Shown one piece after another: positions 36,375 to 38,825 of a stretch of 64,000 bases of DNA. Source of the stretch: Escherichia coli. Its GTDB lineage: Bacteria > Pseudomonadota > Gammaproteobacteria > Enterobacterales > Enterobacteriaceae. Under the pieces are notes generated by a model. It worked only from the letters and a program-made list of their open reading frames with translations, had not been told where the DNA came from and searched no databases. The position numbers and the translations under genes were made by a program. Where the stretch lies: the NCBI RefSeq assembly GCF_002854065.1, contig NZ_CP024147.1; one strand, written 5' to 3'. Positions within the stretch are counted from its first letter, which is position 1; each line of letters starts with the position of its first letter.

Positions 36375-38303
36375 TTATTCCTCCAATTGTTTAAGACTGC
36401 GGCTGCGAATCTCTTGTTGCAGCTTCTCGATCACTTCATTTACGTCCATGCTTCCCAGGTCTTTACCACGGCGGGTGCGAACGGCAACTTTGCCTGATTC
36501 CACCTCTTTATCACCACAGACCAGCATATATGGGACGCGACGCAAAGTGTGCTCGCGGATTTTAAAGCCAATCTTCTCATTTCTCAAGTCTGCTTTAACA
36601 CGAATGCCCGCATTTGATAGTTTTTGCGTCAATTCGTTAACGTAATCAGACTGTGAATCGGTAATATTCATGATAACAACCTGAACCGGCGCAAGCCAGG
36701 TCGGGAAGAAACCAGCGAATTCTTCGGTCAGGATACCGATGAAACGTTCCATCGACCCAAGAATTGCGCGGTGAATCATTACCGGTACCTTACGCTCGTT
36801 GTCTTCGCCCACATAGGAGGCGCTCAGACGAGACGGCAAGGAGAAGTCCAGCTGTACTGTACCGCACTGCCATGCACGATCGAGGCAGTCATACAGGGTA
36901 AATTCAATTTTCGGACCGTAGAAAGCGCCTTCACCCAGTTGATATTCAAACGGGATGTTGTTTTCTTCCAGCGCAACCGCCAGGTCCGCCTCAGCACGAT
37001 CCCACATTTCGTCACTGCCAATACGTTTTTCAGGACGAGTGGAGAGTTTGACGACAATCTTCTCGAAGCCAAAAGTGCTGTACATATCATAGACTAAACG
37101 GATACATCCGTTAACTTCATCGCGAATTTGTTCTTCAGTACAGAAGATATGCGCGTCATCCTGGGTAAAACCACGCACGCGCATCAGGCCATGCAGCGAA
37201 CCTGACGGCTCGTTACGGTGGCAGCTACCAAACTCGGCCATACGCAGCGGCAGATCGCGATAAGACTTCAGCCCCTGGTTGAAAATTTGTACGTGACCCG
37301 GGCAGTTCATCGGCTTAATGCAGTATTCACGGTTCTCAGAAGACGTGGTGAACATTGCATCTTTGTAGTTGTCCCAGTGACCGGTTTTTTCCCACAGGAC
37401 ACGGTCCATCATGAACGGACCTTTAACTTCCTGATACTGGTACTCTTTCAGTTTAGAACGAACAAACACTTCCAGTTCACGGAAGATGGTCCAGCCGTCG
37501 TTGTGCCAGAATACCATACCCGGCGCTTCTTCCTGCATATGGTACAGGTCGAGCTGTTTACCGATTTTACGGTGGTCGCGTTTCGCGGCTTCTTCCAGGC
37601 GCTGCAGGTAAGCGTTAAGTGCTTTTTTGTCTGCCCACGCCGTACCGTAAATACGTTGCAACATTTTGTTGTTGCTGTCGCCACGCCAGTAAGCCCCTGC
37701 CGTTTTCATTAGTTTGAAATGATGGCAGAAACGCATGTTCGGTACGTGCGGACCGCGGCACATATCGACATATTCTTCATGGAAGTACAGACCTGGCTTG
37801 TCATCATGGGCGATGTTTTCGTCAAGAATGGAGACTTTGTAGCTCTCCCCACGGTTGGCGAAAGTTTCACGCGCTTCGTGCCAGCTGACTTTCTTCTTAA
37901 TGACGTCGTAGTTTTTCTCAGCAAGCTCATGCATCCGCTTCTCGAGTGCTTCGACATCTTCCTGGGTTAACGTGCGGTCAAGATCAACGTCGTAATAAAA
38001 ACCGTTGTCAATAACCGGGCCGATTGCCATTTTGGTATGCGGCCAAAGTTGTTTAATCGCGTGCCCTAACAGGTGCGCACAGGAGTGACGAATGATCTCC
38101 AGACCTTCTTCGTCTTTGGCGGTAATGATCGACAGTTGTGCGTCGTTTTCAATCAGATCGCAAGCATCAACCAGTTCGCCATTAACGCGCCCTGCGATAC
38201 AGGCTTTCGCCAGACCTGGACCAATGTCCAGCGCAACATCCATGGGGCTTACAGCGTGATCGTAATGGCGTTGGCTGCCATCAGGAAGAGTTATAACAGG
38301 CAT
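36375..38303 (-). CDS. thrS: threonyl-tRNA synthetase
   Basis: 642-aa ORF. Confidence 0.95.
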
Positions 38304-38460
38304 TTTATATCCTTATTTGCAGTGGTGACCCACACGAAAGATCACATACAAAGAAAAATTTGTTTATTAACAGTTCATTGCGAAACCATCTAGCCAACAA
38401 ATGCTAAATTGGTTCGCAATCAGGTACACAAATGAAAGACATTAACCTCTCACCTTCCAC
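38304..38460 (-). promoter_or_regulatory. thrS 5' leader / translational operator region (autoregulation by ThrRS), approximate extent
   Basis: Established for E. coli thrS; extent not verified from sequence. Confidence 0.35.
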
Positions 38461-38825
38461 CCGGTTGAGCGATGTTAACACTAAAAAAAGGGAGATTGTA
38501 CCTTTCCGTTTCACATTGATTCGATTCGCAATTCGTTTGTAGTGAGTACACCAGCAAAACGCTTAAAGAACAACTGATAACATCACGGAGCGTCTGAAAG
38601 GTTTACTGCGAGCGGATTTACAGCAGCATAAACTGAATCCAGCAAAGTTCGTTGCATGATTTGGCGGTAGTATTTAAACGATCATGAGATTAATGACGAA
38701 GTGGTCATATCACAATGATAAAAGTGACACAATTCTTATAGCAATTTTTCGTGCACATTTCGTTCTGGCGATAATAATTAATCATCATCCTCAAAACCTC
38801 CAGACATATATAAGGCGAATAGATT

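Follow-up and report, generated by a model that had tools for sequence, protein, structure and literature searches.

The long thrS–arpB intergenic region of Escherichia coli most likely joins the known thrS control elements to the AT-rich flank of a foreign gene

The divergent gap between thrS and arpB in E. coli very probably combines the promoters and operator already known for thrS with the AT-rich, neutrally evolving flank of a foreign gene, and would thus be a real but ordinary feature. The gap was analyzed in a 64,000-nucleotide window of contig NZ_CP024147.1 (assembly GCF_002854065.1), in which it occupies 522 bp (38304-38825) between thrS (36375..38303, minus strand; 642-residue threonyl-tRNA synthetase, assigned from the ORF list and from the RefSeq annotation of K-12 and of a strain with an identical spacer) and arpB/espL1 (38826..40724, plus strand). 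It is proposed to be a composite divergent control region. In the thrS-proximal ~270 bp (38304 to ~38573), which constitutes the thrS expression apparatus, an extended −10 promoter (P1) fires at 38465 to produce a 162-nt leader, and a second, minor promoter (P2) fires at 38538. Free threonyl-tRNA synthetase (ThrRS) would bind two anticodon-arm-like hairpins in this leader, so that the ribosome is blocked at the adjoining Shine–Dalgarno (SD) sequence and AUG (autogenous repression). The other ~254 bp (38572-38825) would represent the upstream flank of arpB/espL1, at the edge of a 2.3-kb AT-rich segment that entered the stem lineage of E. coli and landed exactly between the divergent thrS and yniD promoters of the ancestor. 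The only elements of this distal part would most likely be a short 5'UTR and an arpB promoter that is weak or silenced; otherwise it would evolve neutrally.

An earlier, sequence-only reading had described a gap of about 520 bp that holds no ORF longer than 60 residues, in a region where most gaps are shorter than 150 bp, and this description is confirmed. In the ORF listing, no ORF of at least 60 residues lies wholly within 38304-38825. The longest ORF of the spacer encodes 59 residues (38684..38863, plus strand) and runs out of frame into arpB, the others encode at most 36, and a 106-residue ORF antisense to thrS (38073..38393) reaches the spacer by only 90 nt. The equivalent gap of K-12 measures 523 bp and ranks first among the 50 gaps of the matching 50 kb in the RefSeq annotation, followed by gaps of 332, 329 and 315 bp; the remaining divergent gaps of this region are 146-332 bp long, and 33 of the 50 gaps are 150 bp or shorter. 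The GC content of the spacer is 0.38, compared to 0.49 for the whole window, and no RefSeq feature is annotated inside it in either K-12 or a strain with a 100% identical spacer. Of 5426 complete E. coli genomes, 5415 carry at least 80% of the spacer, with an identity of 95-100%.

ThrRS autoregulation is a classical system in which free synthetase occupies anticodon-arm-like hairpins and excludes the 30S subunit. In the window, the thrS 5' leader with the ThrRS translational operator spans 38304..38465 (minus strand, 162 nt), as placed by transcription start site (TSS) maps and identity with K-12, and it folds far more stably than shuffled sequence (z = −4.4). The SD sequence, UAAGGA, was located by sequence at 38310..38315 (minus strand). 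Adjoining it, the predicted fold places the domain 2 hairpin of the operator at 38325..38345 (minus strand), with a 7-bp stem and a 7-nt loop, UUCGUGU (38332-38338), that holds a tRNA-Thr-like CGU triplet. This SD-proximal hairpin block is almost unchanged in an alignment of 11 enterobacterial species. Farther upstream, an inverted repeat and the predicted fold define a long hairpin of the domain 4 type (38378..38419, minus strand) with UGU in its loop, which we take to be the published operator domain 4; the distal leader of the E. coli type has a fold z of −2.8. The published description of the ThrRS translational operator names the SD and shows that binding competes with the 30S subunit, so that translation is repressed (PMC3858243). 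Based on the K-12 literature and on sequence identity, ThrRS would be expected to bind the operator within 38304-38465. Relative to the E. coli thrS operator described by Springer, Romby and co-workers, with its mimicry of the tRNA-Thr anticodon arm, the window is identical over the whole leader and both promoters, and nothing differs in the leader. This operator, however, explains only the proximal 162 nt of the 522-bp gap, or ~270 bp when the promoters are counted. A different arrangement of the leader is observed in the Citrobacter genomes (L005-L008), in K. oxytoca (L009) and in L003, an arpB-less genome described below. Their SD-proximal operator hairpin is retained with 95-98% identity, but upstream of approximately −50 (~50-160 nt upstream of thrS) the distal leader is wholly different and has no significant fold (z ~0; the E. 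coli type reaches −2.8). The second hairpin of the ThrRS operator, domain 4, seems to be missing from these genomes.

The 162-nt leader, which the sequence-only reading had correctly supposed to fill part of the gap, is delimited by a TSS in two published K-12 maps. In SMRT-Cappable-seq, the thrS operon is a reverse-strand entry at 1799355-1802732, with 2341 reads in one table and 1364 in the other (PMC6131387), and Kim 2012 lists the thrS TSS at 1800756 (NC_000913.2) with a 5'UTR of 162 nt and prints a promoter string that matches the window sequence exactly (PMC3415461). Because K-12 and the window show no difference over 38304-38543, the thrS start is assigned to 38465 (A). The main promoter, P1 (38465..38480, minus strand), has an extended −10 element, TGtTAACAT, at 38472-38480 and a weak −35-like element, GTACAA, at 38496-38501. 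The P1 block, GGTaCAATC...TTTTTTTAGTGTTAaCAT, is conserved in E. coli, E. albertii, Salmonella, Lelliottia, Enterobacter and others. A second reverse-strand TSS, at K-12 position 1802805, is listed for the b1719 operons in Supplementary Data 2 of the SMRT-Cappable-seq study (PMC6131387) and corresponds to 38538 (A, −235) in the window; the TSS at −162 is common to the two independent maps, and that at −235 is present in one. This minor upstream promoter, P2 (38538..38573, minus strand), may use an extended −10 element, TGgTGTACT (38545-38553), and a −35 element, TTGTTC (38568-38573), at a spacing of 17. Little if anything in Salmonella or E. albertii corresponds to the P2 sequence.

The extent of the thrS elements is mirrored in variation within E. 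coli, which was followed from thrS to ydiY in an alignment of the window with 13 other strains (14 in total). The thrS leader (38304-38465) is variable at 2 of 162 sites, and the promoter zone that follows (38470..38571) is invariant (0/102). In the distal spacer (38572-38825), 25 of 254 sites vary and two indels occur, at 38672 and 38691, a diversity that may be inflated, as low identity in this segment was itself a reason for choosing some of the 14 strains. Given this bias in strain choice, pairs not chosen in this way were checked, and they agree. For comparison, variable sites amount to 45/642 at thrS third codon positions, 26/252 at ydiY third codon positions and 14/173 in the arpB–yniD spacer. 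The distal rate is indistinguishable from each of these (p = 0.17, 0.88 and 0.61, respectively) and differs from both the leader and 38470-38571 (p = 0.0003 each, Fisher). Likewise, between the window and K-12, 2.4% of the distal sites and 2.2% of the thrS third positions differ, compared to 0/268 in 38304-38571. By this pattern, the constrained zone stops near 38571-38573, at the upstream edge of P2, and the rest drifts approximately neutrally. The earlier estimate of roughly 350 bp of unexplained sequence is therefore too high: with thrS elements extending to ~38573, ~254 bp are left. A natural IS5-mediated deletion in strain ET479 runs from 38571 to upstream of pfkB and leaves 38304-38570 in place.

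Natural strains show that IS elements strike this spacer. In ET479, the IS5-like element behind this deletion replaces arpB, yniD and ydiY, beginning at exactly 38571. In strain FG92-1, an IS1 at ~38683, ~143 bp upstream of arpB, joins arpB to prophage genes, a junction that indicates a rearrangement. A published avibactam-resistant K-12 mutant carries IS2 at 1,802,720, a position that falls within the thrS leader by 12 nt (PMC12323667).

The distal spacer belongs to a segment with its own history. To compare species, thrS loci were taken from 80 genomes, with each species of the genome collection represented once. Homology to the window covers the operator in all 80 loci and the distal leader in many. 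On the left side, homology with Salmonella arizonae and E. albertii continues through the P1 block and ends at 38516-38519; with looser scoring, Lelliottia possibly aligns up to 38547, and the left border is accordingly fuzzy, from 38516 to ~38573. On the right side, homology with the arpB-less L003 begins again at 40840, just upstream of the yniD promoter. None of the 80 other-species loci, which include two other Escherichia lineages (E. albertii and L003), has arpB at this site, and in L003 ydiY, yniD and thrS are directly adjacent. Based on the homology breaks on both sides and the absence of the segment elsewhere, ~38520..40839 is assigned as an insert of ~2.3 kb that is specific to E. 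coli and separates the promoters of thrS and yniD. Its GC content is 39.1%, compared to 49.8% for thrS, 49.4% for ydiY and 49.2% for the window. The 254-bp distal spacer (37% GC) lies within this insert as the upstream flank of arpB. The earlier suggestion that the gap holds remnants of the element that brought arpB is thus borne out insofar as the homology break, the absence of the insert elsewhere and the low GC content assign the remainder to DNA that arrived with arpB; what was not found are traces of mobility. Neither mobility genes within the insert nor direct repeats at its borders were detected, the distal 306 bp matched only mislabelled E. coli chromosomes in the plasmid collection, and these 306 bp had no match in the phage collection. 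In a search at distant sensitivity, 5425 of the 5426 complete E. coli genomes have a single copy of the 306 bp, and no paralogous copies were found. A homologue search with ArpB returned nearly only E. coli proteins and one relative at 30% identity, so there is no donor context to compare.

The same junction carries unrelated DNA in other species. In E. albertii, unrelated gene-poor DNA lies upstream of P1. In Salmonella, a different island, SL1263-66, occupies the thrS–ydiY junction (PMC5122947). As in E. coli, unrelated low-GC foreign genes thus lie between thrS and ydiY; the cargo differs, however, with the E. coli insert consisting of one gene in 2.3 kb, and nothing is shared past the thrS promoter. 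In arpB-less relatives, the thrS and yniD promoters stand back to back with start codons 287-513 bp apart. The yniD promoter (40840-40897) and thrS P1 (38481-38505) both contain the motif TCCCTTTT(T)nGTTA, oriented oppositely in the two (an inverted pair), and the yniD TSS maps 28 nt upstream of yniD (Kim 2012, PMC3415461).

Two of the sequences recovered at this locus, and one repeat, deserve separate description. L003 (NZ_JAATUR010000048.1) is labelled as E. coli SCPM-O-B-8794 and carries a Citrobacter-type distal thrS leader. Its identity to the window is 88% over ydiY–yniD, 97% over thrS–infC and 94% further on; with DNA identities of 88-97%, L003 is probably not a typical E. coli but a recombinant or a different Escherichia species. 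L083 (a contig of Logan SRR27475715) resembles window positions 38499-41128 at 89.6% identity. All of its differences in the inspected interval 38499-38900 are G to A, and the arpB ATG reads ATA; a divergent species was rejected as its source, since this uniform G to A change looks like a bisulfite- or deaminase-type sequencing artefact, with converted E. coli DNA having been assembled as though it were native. A 16-nt inverted repeat (38616-38631 and 40655-40670, 15/16 complementary) brackets most of arpB, with its left arm in the upstream spacer and its right arm within the arpB 3' end, and is the only repeat pair that spans the gene. It was rejected as a pair of transposon ends, as both arms lie inside the homology borders and one is in the arpB coding sequence. 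With an estimated ~0.05-0.2 such pairs expected, it is probably due to chance.

The gene carried by the insert is intact in the window, where it encodes a 632-residue homologue of ankyrin and ShET2/EspL-family type III secretion system (T3SS) effectors; the name espL1 is that of RefSeq, and Pfam domains PF12796 and PF07906 are found on close relatives. Four of the 13 other strains also have an intact arpB. In eight of the 13 it is a pseudogene or deleted, and a ninth has a ~100-bp internal deletion. The gene is frameshifted in K-12, has an internal stop in strain 2013C-4974, and shows an identical 863-bp deletion (window 39623-40485) together with a frameshift in AVS0282, 2020S05-235, KE41, muskdeer13-4, Dog168 and SF-173. 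Its diversity is 3.4-4.0%, and the variability of first and second codon positions exceeds half that of third positions, which points to relaxed selection on arpB. With such relaxed selection, drift of the control region is expected, and this fits the data.

A promoter for arpB in the spacer, as the earlier reading had proposed, is plausible; it presumably lies in the distal part and would be weak or silent. A candidate −10 hexamer, GATAAT, is present at 38770..38775 (plus strand) and would imply a 5'UTR of ~43 nt; it was missed by the consensus scan and has no TSS in the two K-12 maps. The TATAAC proposed for arpB in Ishihama's table (PMC3946193) needs an A at 38741 that, among the 14 strains, only K-12 has. 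Neither K-12 map lists a plus-strand start before arpB (PMC6131387, PMC3415461), and neither has any TSS within 38572-38825, in laboratory media and in a strain in which arpB is a pseudogene. The consensus promoter scan gave counts at chance and no plus-strand site; since the real P1 and P2 escaped it as well, it says little about an arpB promoter. The setting resembles that of silenced, horizontally acquired AT-rich genes, in that the insert is likewise low in GC, species-specific and limited to a single gene, and in that arpB likewise lacks a TSS in laboratory maps and is decaying in many lineages. In contrast to established xenogeneic silencing, a role of H-NS at the arpB spacer would be by analogy, and the SELEX table carries no H-NS flag there (PMC3946193).

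The resemblance to xenogeneic silencing raises the possibility that the distal 254 bp form a selected regulatory platform of arpB/espL1, with sites for H-NS nucleation and counter-silencing or for virulence or stress regulators. AT-rich foreign DNA upstream of a T3SS-effector homologue is typical of such silencing, the segment is kept in nearly all E. coli, including those with a broken arpB, and the RpoD SELEX table reports an RNA polymerase holoenzyme peak in the spacer (PMC3946193). Variation in this segment nevertheless equals the synonymous rate and includes the indels at 38672 and 38691, and the inactivation of arpB in many lineages makes strong selection on its control region unlikely. 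The count of high-affinity H-NS motifs in the window is at chance, which is uninformative, and the supplement of an H-NS transposon-capture preprint has no entry at the arpB–thrS locus. Because arpB appears in SOS gene lists, a LexA box (CTG-N10-CAG, near TACTGTATATATATACAGTA) was also searched for in 38250-38950; none was found, as the best 20-mers matched at no more than 12 of 20 positions and had 1-2 mismatches in the core. As a positive control, a near-consensus box, TACTGTACGTATCGACAGTT (15/20), is present at 45911-45930, upstream of ydjM (offset from the K-12 annotation), which we take to be an SOS gene. The inclusion of arpB in the SOS lists is due to a UV microarray study; ciprofloxacin induces ydjM, but its induction of arpB is not significant (PMC11002266). 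A selected platform is therefore unlikely. The distal part would instead have to be an extension of thrS control if the whole gap served this gene, with more upstream promoters or activator sites. P2 does show thrS initiation beyond P1, and Ishihama's table predicts TCGTCA-17-TAAAAT ~400 bp upstream of thrS and assigns the SELEX peak to a thrS-directed hexamer pair near 38670-38700 (PMC3946193). The predicted −10, however, needs a T insertion at 38672 that occurs in K-12 and one other strain and is missing from the window and 11 strains, and SMRT-Cappable-seq lists no reverse-strand TSS beyond 1802805. Moreover, the distal part is missing upstream of thrS in other species and varies neutrally, and the natural deletion up to 38571 is viable, all of which makes this explanation very unlikely.

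The earlier suggestion that the spacer conceals an unannotated small RNA or a structured cis-regulatory RNA did not hold up and is highly improbable. The ~250 bp offer room enough, and condition-specific small RNAs can escape maps made under laboratory conditions. An Rfam scan of 37800-39300 nonetheless returned zero matches at E ≤ 1, a consensus scan of the spacer found no intrinsic-terminator-like site, and the fold of the distal spacer is not significant on either strand (z = −1.7 and −1.2). The segment thus shows no RNA family match or significant conserved structure, and a discrete small RNA with its own TSS and terminator is seen in neither of the two K-12 maps nor the terminator scan. 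Its variation is at the neutral level, its sequence is confined to E. coli, and in the K-12 maps, under laboratory conditions, the starts in the gap are essentially only those of thrS, which is the outcome that the sequence-only reading had named as evidence against itself. Taken together, that reading of the gap is partly supported. A small protein is barely credible. ORFs of 36 residues (38432..38542, plus strand) and 59 residues are present, but the latter is frameshifted by the indels at 38691 in three strains and overlaps the arpB start out of frame, and the indel at 38672 (two strains), upstream of this ORF, would affect it too. The 36-residue ORF lies opposite the thrS leader and promoter on the other strand, where neither K-12 map has a plus-strand TSS. 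Moreover, the small-ORF supplement of Stringer 2021 has no entry at K-12 18026xx-18029xx and does not mention thrS or arpB. Finally, it is quite unlikely that the distal 254 bp hold a condition-specific element for an intact arpB/espL1 or a short transcript; such a promoter or regulator site might be active only in the host or upon relief from H-NS, in strains with a whole arpB. At the same low likelihood, and separately, P2 could have arisen in the E. coli lineage as an extra control of an essential synthetase operon.

The preferred reading, a composite of thrS control elements and the drifting flank of arpB, can be set beside the long divergent intergenic regions with multiple promoters described in E. 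coli (Conway 2014, PMC4161252). Like them, the thrS–arpB gap lies between two divergent genes, one of which has more than a single promoter, and it includes a long 5'UTR. In contrast to those regions, its length is mainly due to inserted foreign DNA and not to overlapping divergent transcripts. The result settles which bases of the gap belong to thrS (to ~38573) and which to the drifting flank of an often-decayed effector gene. Its value is mainly one of annotation hygiene, at an insertion site that is also occupied by other foreign DNA in Salmonella and E. albertii. It would be useful if the arpB locus serves as a neutral integration site, and for the interpretation of IS insertions upstream of thrS, for example in avibactam- or mecillinam-resistant mutants: insertions past ~38573 should spare thrS control, whereas those within ~270 bp of the ATG will not.
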